Source: Thermodesulfobacteriota bacterium
GTDB taxonomy: Bacteria; Desulfobacterota; Desulfobacteria; Desulfobacterales; SURF-7
Reading direction: 5' to 3'
Length of the DNA: 64,000 bases
Assembly (NCBI GenBank): GCA_049320885.1
Contig: JBMORA010000042.1
Coordinates: 1 to 64,000 of the forward strand
Shown here in pieces: positions 42,965-55,962 of the stretch. The position numbers and the translations under genes are program-made. Under the pieces are notes generated by a model. It was not told the DNA's origin. It did no database searches and saw nothing but the letters and a program-made list of their open reading frames with translations. Position 1 is the stretch's first letter, and every line of letters begins with the position of its first letter.

Positions 42965-43179
42965 CATCGTCGCCGCATAAACCCATCCAATCCGATAGCG
43001 ATCAACGCATCGTCGCTGCCCGACTTTTCTGTAACTTTACATCAGACGCCGGATATGATAGCGTAAAAATCGACGCTACCGGCTGTAGAATCCAACAGCA
43101 CCAGACCGTTTCATTCCCGTGAAAAATCGACCCAATCGGTTTTATTGGCCGCATGATTCAAACACATGGCGGAGTCGAC

Positions 43180-44685
43180 ATGCAATTCGATTATCTCACC
43201 AGCAAATGCAACTGGTTCTGCCTGACAGCCCTCCTGCTCTGCCTGTCGCCGACCGCCGTTCCGCATGCCGGGGAAATGGGGGCGGCCTACTATGATTTCG
43301 GCGTCTTCGCTTTCGAGGAGAACGATTTTTCGGATGCAGAGCGGAATTTTCAAAAAGCCCTGGCTGCCGATCCCCGGAATGTCAGCTACCGGTATTATCT
43401 GGGCAAAACCTATCTGAAAATGAAACGGTATGAAAAAGCCGAAGCCATACTGAATGAAGTCTTTCGGGAAAATGCTGACCTGAAAGGGCTGAAATACGAT
43501 TTGGCCATGGCCAATTTTCATCTCGGCGATCTGGCCGAGGCCAGTTTTCTGCTTTCCATCGTCGTTGCGGAAAATCCCGCCGACGTTCTCGCGACGTATC
43601 ATCTCGCCGTTTGTCAGTACAAACGGAAACGCTATCGGGACGCCCTGGAATACTTCAACCGCGCGGCTGAAAAAAACCCCGGCATCGGACCGAACTGCTC
43701 CCTGTATGCCGGAATCTGTCATTACCGGCTGGGAGAACTGGAACAGGCTGTCCGGGAATTCGATGCCGCCGCGGTCCATGAAAAACCGGAAGAAATCCGG
43801 CAACAGGCGCGTCAATGGCGCAACGCCGTTCAGGCGGATATCAACGCCCAAAGGCCCTACCGGCTGTTCTGCAAGCTCGGGGGGCTGTATGACGATAATG
43901 TGTCGCTGCAACCCGTCGATGGGGATCTGGCTACCAATGAAGAGGACTGGGGACTCATCGGTTTTCTGTCCGGCAGCTATCGTCTGCTGGGTGACAACCG
44001 CAACGGTCTTGGAATGGGATATCGGCATTATCAGATCGCCTACCGGGAATTGTCCGACTATAACCTCATTTCCTCGGCCCCGCATCTGTTCGCTTCCGTT
44101 TCCTGGGAACGCCTGGCTTTCATCCTTTCCTATCAACCGACATTCTTCTGGGTGGGTTCGGACGAATACCTGCTCCGCCATCACGGCCGACAGGAAATCG
44201 CCTGGACAATGACGCCCCGTATCACCAGTCGTTTCGCCTTCAACTATTACGGAAACAATTACCTGATCAATTCCGGCAGAAGCGGGCGGACTCTGGGAGT
44301 GGAGGCCGAACTCCGCTATCGTTTCGGCAATGACGCTCCGGCGGTTTTCGGCGGGTTTTCCTGCGAGGAAAATGACACCACCCATCCGGATTACGCCTAC
44401 AAGCTGGGGGAAGCGCGGCTGGGCGCTTCCATGCCGATGCCCCTGGGCTTGCTGGTCACGGCAGGCGGACGATTTGCCCGTAAGCGATATGAGCATGTGG
44501 ACTCGGTATATGGTGACAGAAGGGAGGACGACAAATACGCCATCGAACTGACGGTTGGACGGAATCTATACCGCGATTGGCTGGGAGCGGAGTGCTCCTA
44601 TTACTTCACCCATAACGACTCCGACATCGAACCGTATGATTACCGGTCCAATGTAATCCATCTGACGGTTGTTGCGAATTTCTAG
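43180..44685 (+). CDS. TPR-repeat protein with C-terminal outer-membrane beta-barrel
   Basis: Signal peptide, several TPRs, GGLYDDNV barrel start, alternating aromatic strands and terminal Phe. Confidence 0.8.
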   Translation: MQFDYLTSKCNWFCLTALLLCLSPTAVPHAGEMGAAYYDFGVFAFEENDFSDAERNFQKALAADPRNVSYRYYLGKTYLKMKRYEKAEAILNEVFRENADLKGLKYDLAMANFHLGDLAEASFLLSIVVAENPADVLATYHLAVCQYKRKRYRDALEYFNRAAEKNPGIGPNCSLYAGICHYRLGELEQAVREFDAAAVHEKPEEIRQQARQWRNAVQADINAQRPYRLFCKLGGLYDDNVSLQPVDGDLATNEEDWGLIGFLSGSYRLLGDNRNGLGMGYRHYQIAYRELSDYNLISSAPHLFASVSWERLAFILSYQPTFFWVGSDEYLLRHHGRQEIAWTMTPRITSRFAFNYYGNNYLINSGRSGRTLGVEAELRYRFGNDAPAVFGGFSCEENDTTHPDYAYKLGEARLGASMPMPLGLLVTAGGRFARKRYEHVDSVYGDRREDDKYAIELTVGRNLYRDWLGAECSYYFTHNDSDIEPYDYRSNVIHLTVVANF

Positions 44686-44703
44686 ACAAGGCAGGGCCTC
44701 ACC

Positions 44704-45756
44704 ATGCGCGTGGTAAAAATTTCAGCAGTCGTTGCCATCTGTGCAGTGCTTCTGACAGGACTGGATCGGGTCGCGGCTTCCGCTCCACCCCCGGATTTGC
44801 CGGTGGAAGATATTTTCGCTCCGGGATTCGGCGAACCTGTCGGAAACGTGCTCCTGGTGCAGGGGAAGGTCTATATCGTTCATGGGGGGATGAAGGCGGC
44901 CTATTCCATTTCAAAGCCGGTGCCGGTTTTCAAGGGCGATACCATCTATACGGACACTGGGGGGCGCATCCGCTTCCGCCTGAATGACGGCAGCATCATC
45001 GCCCTCTCCGCCGACACGGAATTGACCTTGACCAGAAGCATATACAACCCGGAACGGCGGGAACGCTCTTCCTTCCTGAAAATGATGGTTGGTCGGGCGA
45101 GATTTTACGTCATGAAACTGATGACCTATCGCGAGAACGCCTTCAAGGTGAAAACCAACACCTTTGTGGCCGGTGTGCGCGGGTCGGATTTCATCATCAC
45201 CGCCACATCCGCTTCCGCCTCCGTCACGGCGCTGGAGGACACCACCCTTGAAATCGTCAGTCTGTCGGCCCCCGAAGCCGCCCCTGTGGTGTTGACCGAT
45301 TTCCTCCGGACATCCGTTGACCTGGGAGCACTTCCCGGCCTCCCGGAAAAACTGGAAATAGAGGAAATCGAGGCTTTGAAGGAAGGGTTGTCACTGGATG
45401 GACATGTTTCCCGGGAGCCGGCCTCCGGAGTGAATAAACCGGAAAAGGGCGTTTCCCCGTCCGGCGAACAAGCCGGCAACAAAACTGAAAAAACTGGAAC
45501 CGCCGGCGGGGATGAAACCATTCCGGCGGCCCGGGAGGCCGCCGTAGTGATCCCGCCGGAAGACCTGCTCGTTCCCGAAGGTGTGCAGAACGGCCTGCCT
45601 CCGGAGGAACTTCCGGCTACCGAACCGGACAGAAGGGCTCTGACCGGCGACATGGATGAGGTCGAGGGTGAAATCAAGACGATCATGGCCGATAAGCGCG
45701 AGGACGATTCCGGCCGGCTTGCCGAACTCCCCCCCATGCCGGAGCCACCCCGGTGA
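44704..45756 (+). CDS. FecR-domain secreted protein with acidic/Pro-rich tail
   Basis: GDTIYT..GGRIRFRLNDGS.IAL...T.L, FKVKTNTFVAGVRGSDF. Confidence 0.85.
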   Translation: MRVVKISAVVAICAVLLTGLDRVAASAPPPDLPVEDIFAPGFGEPVGNVLLVQGKVYIVHGGMKAAYSISKPVPVFKGDTIYTDTGGRIRFRLNDGSIIALSADTELTLTRSIYNPERRERSSFLKMMVGRARFYVMKLMTYRENAFKVKTNTFVAGVRGSDFIITATSASASVTALEDTTLEIVSLSAPEAAPVVLTDFLRTSVDLGALPGLPEKLEIEEIEALKEGLSLDGHVSREPASGVNKPEKGVSPSGEQAGNKTEKTGTAGGDETIPAAREAAVVIPPEDLLVPEGVQNGLPPEELPATEPDRRALTGDMDEVEGEIKTIMADKREDDSGRLAELPPMPEPPR

Positions 45757-45809
45757 CAACCGGTGTAGAACAAAAGAGCAGGAAACCGACAAATCATCAT
45801 GAGGACCCA

Positions 45810-48800
45810 ATGATCTCGATATCATTTCGTCAGATAGGGGCCGTCATCATCCCGGCGATCTTCTGCCTGGCCGCGGTGACGGGGATCCCCGCGGCCCGGG
45901 CAGCCGATTATTATGTGAACATCACCAGCGGAACAGATTCCTCCGGCGGCGGCTCCGCCGCCGCTCCCTGGAAAACCCTGCATTATGCCGTTCCCAGACT
46001 GACATCTTCGGACATCCTGCACGTGGCCTCCGGGTTCTACACCATCGCCAACGGCGAGACCGACGGGCCCATCGAAATCACCGCCGGCAATGTCACCATC
46101 CAGGCCGATGGCCCGGGAGTGGTGATCGAGGGCGACGGCGCCGCCTACTGGGTGGAAGGGTTGACTGTCAGCGGGGCCGCCAATGTCCGCATAACCGGAT
46201 TGAATTTTCTGAATTTCGCCAATGCCGCCGCTTCTTTCCAGCACCTGACAGGGATGTGCATCCTATCCGACTGTACCTTGAAAGGCAATGCCACCGGCAT
46301 CCAGGTGACCAATTCAAGTCCCGTCATCACCCGCAACCGACTTTTCGACAACGGCTACAGCATTTACATCATCGCGGATTCACCCACGGGACCGGCCTCA
46401 CCCGAGATTTCGAACAACCTCATCGCTTCCCGGGCAGGCGGCATGCAGTACGGCATTAAAATCGAAGCGACCGTCACCGATGCCGTGGCCTCCCCCCTCA
46501 TCTATCACAACACCATCGACGGCGCCTCCGCCGACGGTATGTATATTTACAATGGGTTGGGAGCGACGGCGGAGGCGGTGACCCCCGACATCCGCTTCAA
46601 CATCGTCACCAATTGTTCCCAATTCGGCATCAACAACATTGAAGGGACCCCCTCCCAATTCGATTACAACGATGTCTGGAACAACAGCGGCGGCAATTAC
46701 ACGGGCATCACCGCCGGGACCAGCGATATCTCGGACAATCCTCTCTATCTGCCGCATGGCGACCAATACTACCTTCAATCCACCTCGCCCTGCATCAACA
46801 GGATCCCCATTGCCGGTCACCCGGTAAGCGCCGATCTCCGCGGGAAAGCAAGGCCCCAGGGCTCCCTGATTGACCTGGGATGCTTCGAAATCGTCGAACC
46901 GTTCATTCTGCCGGGCGTCTATTATGTGGATGTCGTCAACGGCCGCAACGAACCGTCCGCAGGGACCGCACCCGGAACCGGCGCGTTCCGTAACCTGCAT
47001 TTTGCCCTGGACCGCATCAATTACGGGGATCCGGGCGCTTTCACCCTGGAAGTGGCCCCCGGAATATACGGCATCGCCGGCGGGGAGGAAGACGCCGGTC
47101 TGGAGGTGATCACCGGCAGCCTGATCATCAAGGGGACGCCCTCCCTGGGAGCCGTGGTCGACGGCAGCGGCGCCCTTCAGTGGACAAGCGGTATGACGCT
47201 GAAGACTTCGGGCATCGGAATCTCCGGACTGCGGTTCCAACATTTCAGCAGGGCCGGAATAACGGTGGATAACTGCGGCCCCTCCATCCACCACAATGAT
47301 TTCCTCAACAACCATACCGGCATCCTGGTGGACAGTTATTCGGCCGAATCCGCCCCATCCGTCATCAACAACCTGCTCCGGGGAGATACCGCAAGCGGAA
47401 TGAACAACGGCATTGTCCTGTATGCGGCCGGTTCGTCGGCATCGGCCGGCGGCTCCATCTATTTCAATACCATCAACGGCGGGGCCGGAAGCGGCATCTT
47501 CATCGGCAACAACGGCGGGAGCGCCGCCCCTGAAATTAAATACAATATAATCTCTAATTTCGGAAAATACGGGATTCAAAATACCAACGGCGGCCCGATC
47601 CTTTCTTATAACAATCTGTTCAACAACCTGGCTGCCGATTATCTGGATGTGCCCCCGGGAGAAATGGATATTTCTGCATCCCCGGCCTTCATAAGCGCAA
47701 CCGACTTTCACCTGCAGGTCGGCTCGGCCTGCATCGATCGCATACCGGCTGACAGCGTTTTCCCGTCGGATCTGCTCTCCGTCATCGGCTATGACCTGGA
47801 CGGGAACCCCCGTCCGATGCCCTCTGGCGGCAGTTACGACCTGGGCGCCTATGAGCAGGCGGGTTCCGCCCTGACCATCGGTCTGGCCGTTTACCCCGAA
47901 GGCGCCGGTAGTGTCGTCGACAATCTGTCACAAATCGACTGCCCCGGAGACTGCACCGGTTCCTACTCTTCATCGGACACCATCATCCTTCAGGCGACGG
48001 CCAATGCCGGCTTCCGTTTCGACCATTGGGAAATCGGCGCCGAGTTCCATACCGAGAATCCGGTGTCCTTCACGCCCCATGCAAGTCAGACCGGCAAAGC
48101 GGTTTTCGCGGCCCTTACCAATCAGCCGCCGATCGCACCCGCCGGAATCAGTCCCCGGGACGGCGCATCTTTTGACGGTGCAACGACACAGGTAGCTCTC
48201 CTTTCCAGTGTTTACGCCGATCCGGAAAACGACGGCCACGCAAACACCCACTGGCTGGTACGCCGTCAGGACCGTGGTGTTTATTATTGCGACGATTACG
48301 ATGTTTCCTTCACCCGGACAGCCTCCGCGGAGCCGGAGCTTACTTCCCACGAAGTCAGCGGGCTAGAGTCCGGCATGCAGTATGTCTGGAAGGTGGGGTA
48401 TCAGGACACCGGCAGCGGACAGATCGCCTGGTCACCGGAATATGTCTTCACCATCGGCGATCCGAGCGTGGACCGGGAAGTCAATTCCCCCGGGGGGGCC
48501 CTGCCGCAGGATTATCGGATGGTTTCCTTTCCGGTCTGGCCTTCTCATGCGGACTGTTCCACCGCTTTCCGCGACAGCTTCCCGGACGGGCTGTACGACC
48601 CCCGGACCATCCGCCTGGGGATCTACGATCCGCTTCAGAGTCGGTATCTGGAATGCCCCGACAACCTGGTGGTGACACCCGGAAAAGCCTACTGGCTCAT
48701 ATCCCGGGAAGGGCTGGACATGACCCTGCACGGCATCCCCGCGACCCTCACCCTTGACATGGAAATACCGCTCTCCTACGCCGAGGAGACCCGGGACGGC

Positions 48801-49280
48801 TGGAACATGGTGGCCTGTCCGAATTTCGCGGCCTACGAATGGTCCCGGTTGGAAATCCTGGAGTCCGACGGCGCCGGCGGTGTGTTGTATGGTCCCGCCG
48901 CCATCGAAACCCTTGGGAGCGACAATGCCTACATCGATATCCGTTTATGGAGTTGGGAAAATGGGGCTTACGCCAGCACCACAACCCAGTTGCGTCCTCA
49001 CCAAGGATATTGGGTCAAGGCCAGAAAAGCCAACCTTTATCTGAAATTCCCCGCATCCGCCCGGTTGAGCCCCACGGACGTATCCGCAGCTTCCATGGCG
49101 CCGGTCGGCAATACAAACCAGCCCTCCCGAAAGGCTGTTCAGGAAAACAATGACAATGAGGAGGACGATGATGATGACTCGCCTCCGCCCCCCATGGAAT
49201 CGGGTTTTTACTTCAAAAGCGACGGCCTGGCGGCCGCCGGCTCCTGTTTCATAGGCGCCTTGAACGGAAATCGCGACTGA
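45810..49280 (+). CDS. Large secreted/surface protein with two parallel beta-helix modules and a C-terminal GSCFI sorting-like tail
   Basis: Signal peptide; YYVN...G.D...G....PWKTL and YYVD...F.NLHFA openers; Asn-rich helical turns; LQ..S.CI..., D..G..RP.G...DLG..E modules; tail DSPPPPM...GSCFIGAL. Confidence 0.85.
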   Translation: MISISFRQIGAVIIPAIFCLAAVTGIPAARAADYYVNITSGTDSSGGGSAAAPWKTLHYAVPRLTSSDILHVASGFYTIANGETDGPIEITAGNVTIQADGPGVVIEGDGAAYWVEGLTVSGAANVRITGLNFLNFANAAASFQHLTGMCILSDCTLKGNATGIQVTNSSPVITRNRLFDNGYSIYIIADSPTGPASPEISNNLIASRAGGMQYGIKIEATVTDAVASPLIYHNTIDGASADGMYIYNGLGATAEAVTPDIRFNIVTNCSQFGINNIEGTPSQFDYNDVWNNSGGNYTGITAGTSDISDNPLYLPHGDQYYLQSTSPCINRIPIAGHPVSADLRGKARPQGSLIDLGCFEIVEPFILPGVYYVDVVNGRNEPSAGTAPGTGAFRNLHFALDRINYGDPGAFTLEVAPGIYGIAGGEEDAGLEVITGSLIIKGTPSLGAVVDGSGALQWTSGMTLKTSGIGISGLRFQHFSRAGITVDNCGPSIHHNDFLNNHTGILVDSYSAESAPSVINNLLRGDTASGMNNGIVLYAAGSSASAGGSIYFNTINGGAGSGIFIGNNGGSAAPEIKYNIISNFGKYGIQNTNGGPILSYNNLFNNLAADYLDVPPGEMDISASPAFISATDFHLQVGSACIDRIPADSVFPSDLLSVIGYDLDGNPRPMPSGGSYDLGAYEQAGSALTIGLAVYPEGAGSVVDNLSQIDCPGDCTGSYSSSDTIILQATANAGFRFDHWEIGAEFHTENPVSFTPHASQTGKAVFAALTNQPPIAPAGISPRDGASFDGATTQVALLSSVYADPENDGHANTHWLVRRQDRGVYYCDDYDVSFTRTASAEPELTSHEVSGLESGMQYVWKVGYQDTGSGQIAWSPEYVFTIGDPSVDREVNSPGGALPQDYRMVSFPVWPSHADCSTAFRDSFPDGLYDPRTIRLGIYDPLQSRYLECPDNLVVTPGKAYWLISREGLDMTLHGIPATLTLDMEIPLSYAEETRDGWNMVACPNFAAYEWSRLEILESDGAGGVLYGPAAIETLGSDNAYIDIRLWSWENGAYASTTTQLRPHQGYWVKARKANLYLKFPASARLSPTDVSAASMAPVGNTNQPSRKAVQENNDNEEDDDDDSPPPPMESGFYFKSDGLAAAGSCFIGALNGNRD

Positions 49281-50597: not shown

Positions 50598-51383
50598 ATG
50601 GGACAGATCACCGTAACCGACTTGCTGCGCATGAAACAGAAGGGAGAAAAAATCATTTCATTGACGGCCTATGACTACCCTTTTGCAAAGCTGCTGGATG
50701 AATCCGGTGTCCATGTCATGCTGGTGGGCGACTCCCTGGGCATGGTCGTCCAGGGGGAGACCAGCACCCTGCCGGTGACCATGGACGAAATGATTTATCA
50801 CACCAAAATGGTGGCCAGGGCCGCCCGGAACGCCATGGTCATCGGCGACATGCCGTTTTTATCCTATCAATGCAGCATGGAGCAGGCAGTTCTGAACGCC
50901 GGCCGTTTCCTCAAGGAAGCCGGAGCGGCCGCGGTGAAACTAGAAGGCGGCGCCGCTGTCAGCCCCATCATCCGGGCCATTACCAGGGCGTCCATCCCGG
51001 TCCAGGCCCATATCGGCCTGACTCCCCAATCCATCCACCAGATGGGCGGCTACAAAGTCCAGCGGGATGAGGAAAGACTGCTGGCCGACGCCAGGGAGGT
51101 GGAGTCCGCGGGCGCCTTTTCCGTGGTCCTGGAAGGCATCCCCGCCGACATCGCGGCCAACATCACCTCCGCCCTCTCCATCCCTACCATCGGCATCGGC
51201 GCCGGTCCCCGATGCGACGGCCAGATTCTGGTGCTGCACGATATGCTGGGTTTGAATGACCGGAAAATTCCAAAATTCGTCAAACGCTATGCCCAGCTGG
51301 GACAGGAGATTAAAAAAGCGGTTGCCGAATACGCCGGCGAGGTCCGCGGCCTGACATTTCCGGATCAGGAGCATTGCTATTGA
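50598..51383 (+). CDS. panB: 3-methyl-2-oxobutanoate hydroxymethyltransferase
   Basis: [58 protein letters not shown]. Confidence 0.97.
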
Positions 51384-51411: not shown

Positions 51412-51440
51412 TTGACATGAATTCTCCATTCGCTTATGTA
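51412..51440 (+). promoter_or_regulatory. Sigma70-type promoter upstream of the riboswitch
   Basis: TTGACA-17 bp-TATGTA. Confidence 0.55.
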
Positions 51441-51457
51441 AACGAAAAATTTGCTGT

Positions 51458-51630
51458 CGGCCTCAGGTGGCCCTGAAAACGGGCTGAAAAGGGAAACCGG
51501 TGAGAACCCGGTACGGTCCCGCCGCTGTGATCGGGGACGAAGATCGCGACATGCCACTGCTTCGCTTGAGCGGAACGGGAAGGCGCGATCCGCAGGATGA
51601 TCCGAGAGTCAGAAGACCTGCCTGAAGCCG
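51458..51630 (+). ncRNA. Cobalamin riboswitch
   Basis: AGGT...AAAAGGGAA.CCGGTGAGAACCCGG.ACGG.CCCGCCGCTGT, GCCACTG...GGGAAGG and B12 box GTCAGAAGACCTGCC; P1 CGGCCTCAGG/CCTGAAGCCG. Confidence 0.95.
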
Positions 51631-51653
51631 GAAAAAAGACAAAGGGAAATGGT

Positions 51654-51690
51654 AAATCCCCAAGCGGTATTCGCTTGGGGATTTTTTTTT
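51654..51690 (+). terminator. Attenuator terminator (riboswitch expression platform)
   Basis: AAATCCCCAAGCG-GTATT-CGCTTGGGGATTT followed by a T run, just before the RBS. Confidence 0.88.
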
Positions 51691-51706
51691 GGGGGAGACG
51701 ACCATT

Positions 51707-52747
51707 GTGAAAGCCGCGGTACTGATCAAGCCGGGAGAATTGACGGTTACGGACATGCCGGAACCGGATTGCCCCCGGGAAGGCGTGCTGGTTTGCGTGA
51801 AGGCCTGCGGAATCTGTTCCGCCGACGCCAGGATGATCCGGAAGGGACACCGGGCCTTGACCTATCCCCGGATTCCGGGCCATGAAATCACCGGCACCGT
51901 CGCGGAATCCCGTCACCGTGATTTCATGGCCGGCGATGCGGTCCAGATCGCCCCCGGCCTCTCCTGCGGCGGCTGTCGTTCCTGCCGGGCAGGCGCCGAT
52001 CATCGCTGTGACAACATTCAGATTCTCGGTTTCACCCGCGACGGCGGTTTTGCCGAATATGTGGCCGTACCCCTGGCCGGCGCCCTTGCCGGAACAGTCA
52101 CCCCCGTCCCCCGGGGACTGGGTACCGCCGTTGCCTGCCTTGCGGAACCCCTGGCCTGCTGCATCAACGCCCAGGATAAAATCCGGATCGGAGCCGGAGA
52201 CACGGTCTGTATCCTCGGCGCCGGTCCCCTGGGGCTGATGCACGGCCTGCTGGCCCTCAGCCGGAGGGCGGAAACCGTCATACTCTGCGATCCCAGACCC
52301 GAACGGCTGCAACGAGCCCTTGCCGCCGGCATCCCGAACGTTCATGCCCCATCATCCACAGAAGACCTGCAGGAATTCCTTCCGGATACGAACCGGGGTC
52401 GCGGATTGGACGTCCTGATCGTGGCCGGCCCCGACATTCCGCTGGAAGATCGTCTGCTGGAACTCATGGCCCCCGGCGGGCGGATCTCCGTTTTCAGCGG
52501 CTGCACTCCGCCGCTCGCCCTCCGCCCATGGGATGCGAACCGCATTCATTATCGGGAACTCCTGATCTCCGGGGCCTATGGCTGCTCCGCGGAGCACAAT
52601 CGCAAGGCCCTGAGATTCCTGGCGCACAGCCGCTTCGACTGGTCGACCCTGATCACCCATCGAAGCACCCTGACGAATATTCACGGCGCTCTCGATCATC
52701 TGATGATGGCGGACGCCTGCAAAGCCATTGTGGAGGTGAACCCATGA
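51707..52747 (+). CDS. Zn-dependent medium-chain dehydrogenase (iditol/threonine dehydrogenase-like)
   Basis: CGICSAD, GHE, CGGCRSC..C, EPLACC, GAGPLG. Confidence 0.9.
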   Translation: MKAAVLIKPGELTVTDMPEPDCPREGVLVCVKACGICSADARMIRKGHRALTYPRIPGHEITGTVAESRHRDFMAGDAVQIAPGLSCGGCRSCRAGADHRCDNIQILGFTRDGGFAEYVAVPLAGALAGTVTPVPRGLGTAVACLAEPLACCINAQDKIRIGAGDTVCILGAGPLGLMHGLLALSRRAETVILCDPRPERLQRALAAGIPNVHAPSSTEDLQEFLPDTNRGRGLDVLIVAGPDIPLEDRLLELMAPGGRISVFSGCTPPLALRPWDANRIHYRELLISGAYGCSAEHNRKALRFLAHSRFDWSTLITHRSTLTNIHGALDHLMMADACKAIVEVNP

Positions 52748-53865
52748 ATGACCGATTGAAACAGTTCGGTGATCTCATCAACCGCCTGATCGCCGGAAAA
52801 TCCCTTTCCCGGGAGGAAGTCCGCCAGGCGGTTATGCAAATCCTGAAGGACGCGACCACGGAAATCCACCAGGGCGCTTTTTTGGCCGCCGTCACGGCCA
52901 AGGGGCCGACGCCGGATGAAATCGCCGGTGCCTGGCAGGCCATCTACGAAGAGGATACCACCCGGGCCGATCCCCAAACCGAAACGCCCGTCCTGGACAA
53001 CTGCGGCACGGGCATGGATGGGTTTAAGACCTTCAATATCAGCACCGCCGCGGCTGTCGTGGCCGCCGCCGGCGGGGTTCCCCTGGCCCGTCACGGCGCC
53101 AGGGCCATCACTTCCCGCTGCGGCACCGTCGATCTGTGCGAGGCTGTGGGGGTGGACGTGGAATGTCCCGTTCCCGCCGTGACAGCCAGTATCGAAAGGG
53201 TGGGGATCGGCCTGTACAACGGCATGAGCCCCTTCGTCCACCCCCGGGCCTTGTTCCGCATTCTTTCCCGAATGTCCTTCGGCAGCATCCTGAACATCGC
53301 CGCCTCCTTGGCCAATCCCGCCCGGCCCCGTCTGGGCGTCAGGGGGGTTTATGCCGGCGACATGGCCATGCCGGTGGCCCAGGTCATGCGGGAAATCGGC
53401 TACCGAAAAGCCATCGTTCTGCACGGCTCGGCCGCCGAGGGTGTCGGCGGCATGGACGAACTGACGCCGGTGGGCGACAATCTGGCGGCCGAACTCATGC
53501 CCGACGGCCAAATCCGTTCCTATACCATCGCGCCCGCCGCCGTCGGCGTCCGGTTCAACGGTTCCATCCGGGATATCGCCGCCGGACCGGATCCGCAAAC
53601 CGAAGCCCTACGATTGATCCGAGTGTTTGCCGGAAAGGATCACGGCGCACTCTTTGAAACCATCTGCTTGAATACGGCTCCGATTTTTTATCTGGCCGAC
53701 AACACCGAAGACCTGAAATCCGGTTTTGAAAAGGCAAGGGAACTGATCCAGGGCGGCCAGGCCCTGAAACGCCTCCGGCAATGGGTCAAGGCCCAGAATA
53801 CCGCTCCCGAAGCCGGTGCAAAGAGGTTCGACGATCTGGCAAACCTGGTTGAAAATGAAACATGA
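52744..53865 (+). CDS. Anthranilate phosphoribosyltransferase (TrpD)-like paralogue
   Basis: DNCGTGMDG.KTFNIST, RHGARAITSRCG, NPA, GMDEL; ATGA overlap with the upstream gene. Confidence 0.88.
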   Translation: MNDRLKQFGDLINRLIAGKSLSREEVRQAVMQILKDATTEIHQGAFLAAVTAKGPTPDEIAGAWQAIYEEDTTRADPQTETPVLDNCGTGMDGFKTFNISTAAAVVAAAGGVPLARHGARAITSRCGTVDLCEAVGVDVECPVPAVTASIERVGIGLYNGMSPFVHPRALFRILSRMSFGSILNIAASLANPARPRLGVRGVYAGDMAMPVAQVMREIGYRKAIVLHGSAAEGVGGMDELTPVGDNLAAELMPDGQIRSYTIAPAAVGVRFNGSIRDIAAGPDPQTEALRLIRVFAGKDHGALFETICLNTAPIFYLADNTEDLKSGFEKARELIQGGQALKRLRQWVKAQNTAPEAGAKRFDDLANLVENET

Positions 53866-53919
53866 TTTAAGGGGGATTTACGGCTGCTGGAAACCGCCCG
53901 TTTCCCTGATGGAGGTTAA

Positions 53920-55005
53920 ATGGCAATGGAACAGATTACCCTGGACCGGATTATCTCCGGCATTCATCCCGTCGACAACGAATGGCTCCGGAAAGCCCGG
54001 CAGCGGACCGCCGAATTGCTCATGCCCCCCAGGGCGCTGGGCAGGCTTCACGACCTGTCCGAAAAACTCTGCGCCATTCAACGGACTCTCAAACCGTCCG
54101 TCGACCGGAAGGCCTTTTTGGTCATGGCCGGCGATCATGGCGTGGCGGCTGAGGGTGTCAGCGCCTTTCCCCAGGAGGTGACCGGTGAAATGATCCGGTC
54201 CTTTCTACGGGGAGGAGCCGGCATCAATGTATTGGCCGCCCAGGTGAACGCCGATGTATTTGTGGTGGACATGGGCATTATCCCCCGGCTGATTCCCGCT
54301 GAAATAACGGGGGGGGACAGGCTGAGCGTCGTAAAAATCGCCCCGGGAACCCGCAATTTCACCCGGGGACCGGCCATGTCCCGGCCCGAAGCGGAAAAAG
54401 CGGTTCTGGCCGGCTTTCAACAGGCGGCCCGCCTTTTTGAAAGCGGTCTGGACATCATCGGCACCGGCGACATGGGCATCGCCAATACGACCCCCTCGGC
54501 GGCCATCGGCACGCTGCTCACGGGCACGGACCTCGATGACATGGTCGGTCGCGGCACCGGAGTGGATGACGCCGGACTGCAAAAGAAAAAGGACGCCATC
54601 CGCCGCGGCCTGGACATCAACCGGCCGGATCGGACGGACGGCCTGGACGTGCTGGCGAAAATCGGTGGCTTTGAAATCGGCGGCATTGCCGGCGCCATTC
54701 TGGCCGCGGCGTATTGCAGGAAACCGGTGATGGTGGACGGGTTTATCTCCACCGCCGGCGCCTTGGTCGCCCAGGCCCTTTGTCCGCTAAGCGTTGAGTA
54801 CATGTTTGCCGCCCATTGCTCCGAGGAGCGGGGGCATCGCGCCATGCTGCGCAGCCTGGGACTGACGCCGATTCTGGATCTCGGTCTGAGATTGGGCGAA
54901 GGAACCGGCGGCGCGCTCGCCATGGGCATCCTGGAGGGCGCCGTTCGGATTTTCCGGGATATGGCTACCTTTACGGAAGCGGGGGTATCCGGGACACCAT
55001 CATGA
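53920..55005 (+). CDS. cobT: Nicotinate-nucleotide--dimethylbenzimidazole phosphoribosyltransferase
   Basis: MAGDHGV, SAFPQEVT, GDMGIANTT, GRGTG, GGFEI, DGFI, RLGEGTG. Confidence 0.96.
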   Translation: MAMEQITLDRIISGIHPVDNEWLRKARQRTAELLMPPRALGRLHDLSEKLCAIQRTLKPSVDRKAFLVMAGDHGVAAEGVSAFPQEVTGEMIRSFLRGGAGINVLAAQVNADVFVVDMGIIPRLIPAEITGGDRLSVVKIAPGTRNFTRGPAMSRPEAEKAVLAGFQQAARLFESGLDIIGTGDMGIANTTPSAAIGTLLTGTDLDDMVGRGTGVDDAGLQKKKDAIRRGLDINRPDRTDGLDVLAKIGGFEIGGIAGAILAAAYCRKPVMVDGFISTAGALVAQALCPLSVEYMFAAHCSEERGHRAMLRSLGLTPILDLGLRLGEGTGGALAMGILEGAVRIFRDMATFTEAGVSGTPS

Positions 55006-55050: not shown

Positions 55051-55749
55051 TCAGCGAAACCGATACCGGACACCAAAAACGCCGTTGATCGACTCCGGAC
55101 CGATGCAGGCCGAATTGGTCAGATAGATCTGGCCGCCGTTGGAAAAATGTTCCCAGCTGCAATCCAGAAAGGCGGACCATTGTTTGGTGATGTCCGCTTC
55201 CAGGCCACCGCCGCCGGAAAAGTTGAAATTATGCAACGTGCCGTCCTCCAGGATGGTCTCGTTCAGCAGGGAAATGCCGAATCCCAGATGGAGCGTCGGG
55301 CGGATCCAATACTCCGGCAGAAAAATCCAGCGGCGGACGGCCATCAGGGAGACCAGATATTGGTCAAGCGTCGTATAATACGGCCCGCCGGTCCTTTTTT
55401 CCGGGGGCACCTGATCCTCGGTGATCTCGATGGTTCCCGATAACCGGGAATAACGCAGATCGACCCGCAGCGTTCTTTCGGTATCCACCGGCAACGGAAG
55501 CCACTGGCCGGTCTCCCATTCCATGAACACTCCAAAGGCCTTGTTTTCATATCCCTTGTAATCCGAGGCGCTCCAGATATGGTGATGCTTTCCGAAAGAA
55601 CCGAAAGCCCCGGCCCATTTTTTTTTCAGATCCGTTTCCGCAGCCGCCGTATCCGAAGATACCGCCTGGTCCGCGAAAACCGCCTCCCCTGCCATGAGGC
55701 ACAGGAGAAAGATGCCGAATGCCACCGGCAACCAGCGAAAACCTCTCAT
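55051..55749 (-). CDS. Acyloxyacyl hydrolase / PagL-like outer-membrane protein
   Basis: Signal peptide; NFNFSGGGG, HFSNG catalytic motif, C-terminal GVRYRF. Confidence 0.75.
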   Translation of the reverse strand: MRGFRWLPVAFGIFLLCLMAGEAVFADQAVSSDTAAAETDLKKKWAGAFGSFGKHHHIWSASDYKGYENKAFGVFMEWETGQWLPLPVDTERTLRVDLRYSRLSGTIEITEDQVPPEKRTGGPYYTTLDQYLVSLMAVRRWIFLPEYWIRPTLHLGFGISLLNETILEDGTLHNFNFSGGGGLEADITKQWSAFLDCSWEHFSNGGQIYLTNSACIGPESINGVFGVRYRFR

Positions 55750-55962
55750 GGGTTCCGTCCTTCGATACGGCTTGCGGCCACCTTCGGGTATCCCGCCCAT
55801 GGCCATCCGAAGCCGATCCGTCAAATCCATTCCACCATCGGGTTGCCTGGATGCCGTCATCCGCAACCGAATCGAGTGGTGACCATATGGCATTCCGAAA
55901 TCAAAAGTCAATACTCAATACGGGATATACCGGGATACGGTCGCGGTCGGCCCGAAACTTGA

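Follow-up and report, generated by a model that had tools for sequence, protein, structure and literature searches.

The window analysed here is a 64,000-nucleotide stretch of DNA from a Thermodesulfobacteriota bacterium of the order Desulfobacterales (assembly GCA_049320885.1, contig JBMORA010000042.1, positions 1 to 64,000). Between its positions 51412 and 55005, a cobalamin-riboswitch leader is followed by genes for a Zn-dependent dehydrogenase of the MDR superfamily (hereafter MDR), a TrpD-fold phosphoribosyltransferase paralogue (hereafter TRPX) and CobT. This cassette is a real and widespread cobamide module, mis-annotated as trpD plus an alcohol dehydrogenase and apparently undescribed to date. 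With a probability of roughly 0.85, the MDR-TRPX pair performs some step of lower-ligand metabolism upstream of CobT, and with the same confidence the available evidence settles this branch of the pathway, not the substrate.

Conservation of the cassette

A first scan of the genome collection with a single protein gave no matches; at least 559 TRPX relatives were subsequently confirmed, of which the best 80 were kept; according to their record titles, 45 of these loci were bacterial and 35 archaeal. These originated from Desulfobacterales, Methanotrichaceae, Methanomassiliicoccales, Dehalococcoidia, Peptococcaceae-type Firmicutes and others. In 73 of the 80 loci (39/45 bacterial, 34/35 archaeal), MDR either adjoined TRPX or formed a fusion with the next CobT; four of the seven misses were cuts at contig ends, one was a miscount due to a split TRPX frame and two were genuine. 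Using a profile built from the four copies of the source genome, a B12 riboswitch was detected at most 1.7 kb upstream in 31 of the 33 bacterial loci with enough DNA and in none of the 29 such archaeal loci. An Rfam check of 20 of the 80 loci, picked for their small size, was positive for all 16 bacterial and none of the four archaeal ones. A cobT gene lay within about one gene of the pair in 16/45 bacterial and 15/35 archaeal loci, 13 of these 15 archaeal genes being of the divergent TIGR00303 type, and MDR-CobT fusions were present in five inspected loci. Genes cbiR and cbiZ were often near the pair, and a PF13557 outer-membrane channel followed TRPX in seven of the 80 loci, cobT coming next in three of them. 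In Methanomassiliicoccales loci, the pair occurred without neighbouring cob genes. The association with cobamide genes and B12 riboswitches expected from the initial annotation was thus recovered, with CobT beside the pair in bacteria and archaea alike.

The initial annotation also mentioned a similar B12-regulated pair in Dehalococcoides. Dehalococcoides mccartyi indeed encodes TRPX homologues at 55-56% identity; the operon layout was observed in loci of Dehalococcoidia metagenome-assembled genomes, not in D. mccartyi itself.

Two variations of the layout deserve mention. An open reading frame (ORF) of about 67 residues directly follows TRPX in other Desulfobacterales and in Firmicutes (L087:1528-1725, L137:7382-7588, L055:11157-11345); none of the four copies tested had a Pfam match above cut-off, and it was not found in the source genome. 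In genome G034 (loci L119 and L120), TRPX with the small ORF lies 3.3 Mb from an MDR-CobT fusion, neither with a detectable riboswitch. This genome keeps an intact riboswitch-bzaF-like-cobT operon and is a possible case of cassette decay where bza is present.

Leader and operon organization

All features of the cassette are on the forward strand. The full Rfam model of the cobalamin riboswitch aptamer (RF00174) matched positions 51448 to 51639 with 120.9 bits (E 8.6e-30) for a gathering threshold of 31.5 bits, which strongly supports the predicted riboswitch upstream of the genes. The proposed attenuator was likewise recovered, as an intrinsic terminator of the expression platform with a 14-pair stem and a T run (51654-51690) that precedes the first ribosome-binding site; its stem was the same in two genomes of the genus, the loop alone being variable. 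The probable sigma-70 promoter (51412-51440: TTGACA, 17 nucleotides and a weak -10 box, TATGTA) is less secure than first stated: conservation of TTGACA (51412-51417) in three of three aligned genomes of the genus speaks in its favour, and the weak -10 box and the lack of a call at the 51412 site in a consensus promoter scan speak against it.

The MDR gene (51707-52747, 346 aa, Pfam ADH_N and ADH_zinc_N) starts with a GTG at 51707, preceded by a GGGGGAG site. Its TGA overlaps the ATG of the TRPX gene (52744-53865, 373 aa, PF02885 and PF00591) in an ATGA at 52744-52747, in agreement with the translational coupling noticed at the outset. The gene further downstream (53920-55005, 361 aa) is the announced cobT, coding for the nicotinate mononucleotide (NaMN):base phosphoribosyltransferase, with 429 bits to TIGR03160 for an equivalog cut-off of 319. 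Read depth was flat over all three genes in the likely source run and near-identical pieces were present in two runs from a different study, indicating that the operon is not an assembly artefact.

TRPX is probably not a tryptophan enzyme

The TIGR01245 score of TRPX (247.7 bits) exceeds the model cut-off of 199, so that annotation pipelines label it trpD, and look-ups in database clusters returned generic TrpD and MDR clusters only. Its predicted model (pLDDT 92) matched solved anthranilate phosphoribosyltransferases (AnPRTs) with TM scores of 0.78-0.85, as expected for the two-domain fold. The residues of the phosphoribosyl pyrophosphate (PRPP)/Mg site are kept in TRPX as N98, S100, T101, R116, S124, D238 and E239 (position 116 is K in most relatives), equivalent to N117, S119, T120, K135, S143, D251 and E252 of Mycobacterium tuberculosis TrpD, where N117 and T120 presumably also contribute to PRPP/Mg binding. 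For S119, K135, S143, D251 and E252, such roles have been described, and N138 and R193 are the contacts of the anthranilate carboxylate (PMC9835598). Both contacts are lost in TRPX: the Asn of the KHGNR motif is replaced by Ala119, and when 61 TRPX and 35 canonical sequences were aligned by profile, L174 took the place of the invariant AnPRT Arg. The GTGGD motif reads GTGMD in 80 of 80 aligned TRPX sequences. With both carboxylate contacts gone, the acceptor pocket is probably unfit for anthranilate.

A tree was built from 69 sequences, 14 of them chosen and 55 being the first of a set of 103 full-length library representatives; in it, the B12-type TRPX proteins formed a clade of their own with a support of 0.996. 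TRPX has the two-domain fold and PRPP/Mg residues in common with TrpD (EC 2.4.2.18; TIGR01245; PDB 9UCW, 1ZYK, 4OWO) and departs from it by its separate clade, the lost N138 and R193 equivalents, the GTGMD motif, the lack of trp neighbours and the B12 control. A separate canonical trpD, the presence of which had been suggested as a check, was found in the source genome (G000, 98% complete) within a trpE-trpG-trpD-trpC operon on contig C31, its product scoring 419.8 bits with TIGR01245; a second, higher-scoring trpD was also present in all five other genomes tested. Since canonical trpD is encoded elsewhere and TRPX has no trp neighbours, TRPX does not qualify as an enzyme of tryptophan synthesis. 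The TrpD2/YbiB DNA-binding proteins belong to the same fold family, but the PRPP motif absent from TrpD2 (PMC9835598) is retained in TRPX, which reached only 23.7 bits with the YbiB model (cut-off 185).

A second paralogue (locus L123, 43% identical) was found in one genome of the order that also has canonical trpD. The tree places it as sister of the B12 clade (support 0.86); it shares the lost Asn and an R-x-L-S-Q-I-R-F-G helix, and is preceded by TrpC-like, TrpF-like and RibD_C genes and followed by a molybdopterin oxidoreductase gene. Among 74 loci of this sister clade (TRPX2), many of which are on short contigs, RibD_C was found in 47, the TrpF-like gene in 40, the molybdopterin oxidoreductase in 29 and the TrpC-like gene in 27; a home-built profile detected no B12 riboswitch in any of the 74. 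From its gene content, the sister cassette looks like an undescribed arylamine-ribosylation pathway. The neighbours of the sister clade suggest that its members act forwards, adding the ribosyl group to an arylamine and passing the product to sugar-rearranging or reducing enzymes, a point that bears only indirectly on the B12 clade. The cassette (L123:4107-10099, L152-L224) also has a small Lrp/AsnC-domain protein, with no trpE, trpA or trpB in view. In four other metagenomic loci (L184, L185, L192, L193), the sister paralogue is flanked by an adenylate-cyclase/AAA/TPR gene on one side and a gene for a HAD phosphatase on the other.

The dehydrogenase

MDR displays the catalytic Zn ligands C37, H59, E60 and E147, the structural Zn ligands C87, C90, C93 and C101, a GxGxxG at 171-176 and the acidic residue D195, all invariant or nearly so among 50 aligned relatives. 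Its predicted model (pLDDT 93) had threonine, sorbitol and xylitol dehydrogenases as nearest folds. The fold, both Zn sites and the NAD-type acidic residue are thus common to MDR and the polyol and threonine dehydrogenases of its superfamily, but identity to the closest solved members of this group is at most about 30% and MDR remains under every NCBIfam equivalog cut-off, including those of two L-threonine 3-dehydrogenase models (147 bits for a cut-off of 380 and 139.5 for 458). Prediction of a TRPX-MDR complex gave a score of 0.00, which weighs neither for nor against an association.

CobT and cobamide genes of the source genome

In the window CobT, F83 and M91 occupy the S80 and Q88 specificity positions, at which hydrophobic residues have been tied to the use of 5,6-dimethylbenzimidazole (DMB) over adenine (PMC4657239); by this pattern the enzyme would be of the benzimidazole-preferring type. 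Its gene was the only cobT found in the genome. Phenolic activation by ArsAB, defined by two tandem cobT homologues (PMC6461909), was therefore rejected.

The absence of BluB and Bza genes, initially observed for the window, held genome-wide: no protein exceeded the TIGR02476 cut-off for BluB (best 48 for 150 bits), and the sole ThiC-family gene lies in a thi operon, with no bzaF-like match at E 1e-150. No match to CbiD was found in the source genome. Homologues of cbiP, cbiB, cobU, cobS, cbiR, a btuF-cbiZ fusion, btuCD and a TonB receptor were identified, and three further B12 riboswitches head transport or Wood-Ljungdahl genes. One B12 riboswitch (L004, C28:128404-128587) is near a contig end, where the same-strand downstream genes are unclear in the ORF list. 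By gene content, the organism reads as a cobamide salvager and remodeller with one CobT and without known base synthesis.

Distribution relative to bza, CbiD and cbiR

The order was sampled with 201 genomes, TRPX being present in 34 and absent from 167; genes were called bzaF-like if they shared 62% identity or more with a ThiC paralogue led by a riboswitch, a definition that does not involve a BzaF model. A cobT gene was found in 32/34 TRPX-positive and 119/167 other genomes, and cbiR in 31/34 and 110/167, respectively; as kin are not independent, genome-level p-values overstate such contrasts. The anticorrelation between the pair and bza predicted by the initial annotation failed to appear, bzaF-like genes being present in 7/34 TRPX-positive and 39/167 TRPX-negative genomes (p = 0.83), with none in the 12 closest TRPX genomes of the order. 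Two cobT genes were found in four of the seven genomes carrying both modules. One genome has a bzaF-C-D-E-like operon, its BzaD-like gene scoring under cut-off, plus a separate riboswitch-MDR-TRPX unit. CbiD was detected in 26/34 TRPX genomes (absent from 8) versus 42/46 bzaF-like genomes (absent from 4), and 49 of the 110 CbiD-positive genomes of this sample had neither a bzaF-like gene nor TRPX.

Among 101 Methanosarcinia genomes, 36 had TRPX and 99 had CbiD. A single ThiC-family gene was found in 12/36 TRPX-positive and 3/65 other genomes, but all TRPX matches fell into one half of the sample, within which the difference vanished (12/36 versus 3/15, p = 0.50). This half is taken to be one lineage, with which the archaeal contrast is confounded.

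Within the genus, congener G098 carries the promoter, riboswitch and terminator of the cassette directly on a 78% identical cobT, with no MDR or TRPX (L129:6480-8088), and a separate riboswitch-bzaF-like-cobT operon (L128:5433-8137). Congener G174 kept all three genes and had no bzaF-like match. Desulfobacula phenolica and D. toluolica carry TRPX, and bzaF has been reported for both (PMC6461909). In Desulfosporosinus lacus, two tandem ThiC paralogues, bzaAB-like by layout (L142, L143; G203:C19:95470-98127), were observed; its bza is given as not found in the Shelton table (PMC6461909).

Neighbouring genes in the window

Gene panB (50598-51383, forward strand) is directly 5' of the riboswitch leader, an order also seen in congener G098. 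Outside the operon, a convergent gene on the reverse strand (55051-55911) codes for a PagL-like outer-membrane barrel with a weak Pfam match; an ORF of comparable size is found at this position in G098. Three consecutive forward-strand genes (43153-49280) code for a TPR protein, a FecR-like protein, so labelled by eye, and a 1175-residue secreted repeat protein.

Proposed function and alternative explanations

The initial annotation had proposed that the pair makes, salvages or remodels a lower ligand. De novo making was weakened by the missing bza anticorrelation and by the behavior of D. mccartyi, which remodels cobamides solely when DMB is present (PMC11321594), and salvage is now favoured. 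Coexistence with bza, occurrence both in salvagers that lack ring synthesis and in an auxotroph for DMB, and the uptake channel seen after TRPX in some loci favour conversion or recovery of an external compound, and the remodelled pocket together with the sister cassette favours forward transfer to a carboxylate-free arylamine. The lack of CbiD here and the presence of TRPX in DMB-requiring Dehalococcoides make self-sufficient de novo synthesis doubtful. Our tentative preference, held at somewhat less than even odds, is for a forward precursor-salvage route, in which this B12-repressed module would provide CobT with a benzimidazole from a precursor not made by central metabolism.

For the chemistry before CobT, the following steps may be envisaged, although this exact scheme (o-phenylenediamine and PRPP giving a benzimidazole) is itself unlikely to be right in every detail. 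TRPX would move phosphoribose from PRPP onto a carboxylate-free aromatic amine, most simply an imported o-phenylenediamine (unsubstituted, 4-methyl or 4,5-dimethyl), the neighbouring amino group of which would close onto C1'. NAD+-dependent MDR would then take two electrons from the ribose-derived chain, and breakage of the C1'-C2' bond would yield a benzimidazole, with C2 from ribose C1', and erythrose 4-phosphate. Conversion of the freed base by CobT into the alpha-ribotide used by CobS is an established step.

Several points weigh against this scheme or against a simple form of the salvage reading. To our knowledge, no source of free o-phenylenediamines has been documented for anoxic environments. 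Given the chemical stability of 2-(polyhydroxyalkyl)benzimidazoles, C1'-C2' cleavage may need an extra catalyst. The 67-residue ORF conserved elsewhere after TRPX was not found in the source genome, and MDR has Ala39 in the window copy where most relatives have Thr. Two positions ahead of the lost Arg, TRPX has the invariant R172, which might partly take its place in anion binding and would then permit a carboxylated acceptor. Restriction of the pair to salvagers was rejected, CbiD being present in 26/34 TRPX genomes of the order and 35/36 archaeal ones. The exchange of modules in congener G098 is a single case, and L013 and L024, which have long flanks and no adjacent MDR, indicate that the pair is not invariably together.

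The alternative that survives best, although we regard it as unlikely, is that the pair works in reverse and frees benzimidazoles from wrong-form ribosides or ribotides (beta-ribotides, wrong regioisomers, or alpha-ribazole from CbiR or CbiZ). MDR would oxidise or epimerise the ribose, TRPX would pyrophosphorolyse the N-glycosidic bond and CobT would re-activate the base. The excess of cbiR in TRPX genomes, non-independent as these are, the frequent proximity of cbiR and cbiZ, the coexistence with a full bzaF-C-D-E-like operon and the requirement of D. mccartyi for a preformed base would all fit such recycling. However, a low pyrophosphate level, where maintained by pyrophosphatase, disfavours pyrophosphorolysis, and the TrpF, TrpC and RibD neighbours of the sister clade point to a forward reaction. 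Class II nucleoside phosphorylases share the TRPX fold (PMC9835598), a further point for recycling. Against it, Desulfosporosinus lacus has the pair besides the alpha-ribazole kinase CblS (PMC6461909), which offers a shorter route.

Less likely still is a de novo route independent of bza, leading from an aminobenzoate or chorismate-derived amine to benzimidazole or 5-methylbenzimidazole, perhaps with the help of unlinked genes. A gap of this kind does exist, as Desulfobulbus propionicus makes 5-methylbenzimidazolyl cobamide with no bza gene found; another listed maker of this cobamide, D. autotrophicum, has bzaFC (PMC6461909). No TRPX match bore either name, and a link between the pair and producers of 5-methylbenzimidazole was thus not achieved. 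Methanothrix soehngenii makes the same cobamide, a point that the literature searched did not confirm. The single ThiC-family gene of 12 TRPX-positive Methanosarcinia, nearly all genomes of this class having CbiD, the absence of bzaF-like genes from the 12 closest TRPX genomes and the possibility that R172 holds a repositioned carboxylate could be read in favour of this route. Against it stand the missing anticorrelation in the order, the loss of the archaeal contrast within the TRPX-holding half, the joint presence of TRPX and bzaF in the two Desulfobacula species and the persisting need of TRPX-bearing D. mccartyi for DMB.

Two further explanations concern other parts of the nucleotide loop. 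TRPX might regenerate NaMN, or an analogue, from the nicotinate released by CobT: CobT does use up NaMN, the PRPP site is kept and R172 could hold a meta-carboxylate, but this is very improbable because a canonical nicotinate phosphoribosyltransferase (PncB) was found above cut-off in the genome and no role would be left for the dehydrogenase, the very gene that is fused to CobT. Slightly more remote is the synthesis of the aminopropanol linker by MDR as a threonine dehydrogenase or aminoacetone reductase, TRPX having an unrelated role in the loop. L-threonine 3-dehydrogenases are among its best solved relatives (about 30% identity) and PduX is unannotated in several relevant genomes, but scores with threonine dehydrogenase models (about 140-165 bits) are far from the cut-offs of 380-458, the fusion partner is CobT rather than CbiB or CobD, and D. 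lacus has PduX and CobD besides the pair. Finally, B12 riboswitches often control B12-independent alternatives and the Methanomassiliicoccales pairs stand apart from cob genes, but a bypass or other pathway merely co-regulated by B12 is the least credible explanation for a pair that adjoins two CobT families, including in riboswitch-less archaea, and that is fused to CobT.

Relation to known systems and significance

Like bza operons (cobalamin riboswitch, bzaAB or bzaF, cobT and bzaC-E), which occur in the same order, the cassette combines a riboswitch, base-related genes and a dedicated cobT; it differs from them by having no radical-SAM or ThiC-like enzyme, by coexisting with bza and by a looser tie to de novo ring synthesis (the CbiD frequencies given above). 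With the salvage of alpha-ribazole by CblT/CblS and the remodelling by CbiZ and CbiR, it shares the lower-ligand branch and an occurrence in salvagers without ring synthesis, cbiR or cbiZ being frequent neighbours, but those systems belong to other enzyme families and CblS bypasses the CobT retained here. The cassette thus serves the lower ligand as bza and cblTS modules do, and belongs to neither. In its overall balance, the route proposed above would correspond to the latter half of what BluB catalyses, but without using oxygen. The two systems have no homology, the cassette involves neither flavin nor oxygen, and it would, hypothetically, start from a free amine and PRPP. The products proposed for it, a benzimidazole with C2 from a ribose-derived C1' and erythrose 4-phosphate, match those of BluB, the aerobic DMB synthase and one of the known base routes (PMC8123684).

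No description of the MDR-TRPX pair was found in the open-access literature, including the excerpts of PMC8620254, PMC12452182 and PMC11348799; most subscription journals lay outside this search, and absence from print is thus not established.

Lower-ligand supply sets the cobamide of an anaerobe and limits dechlorination by Dehalococcoides, and 42% of predicted cobamide producers are without known base genes (PMC6461909). With its two conserved, mis-annotated enzymes and its tie to CobT in both bacteria and archaea, the cassette offers a concrete and assayable candidate for a missing step. It also shows that the name trpD has been given to several hundred genes outside tryptophan synthesis. 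It is rather doubtful that TRPX and MDR constitute a third benzimidazole route, neither BluB nor Bza, that is free of oxygen and radicals and builds the base from an aromatic diamine and C1' of PRPP. If true, this route would be common to sulfate reducers, Methanothrix-type and Methanomassiliicoccus-type methanogens and Dehalococcoidia, it might explain the 5-methylbenzimidazolyl cobamides of producers without bza, and it would bring to light a cross-fed precursor that has so far gone unnoticed in anoxic communities.

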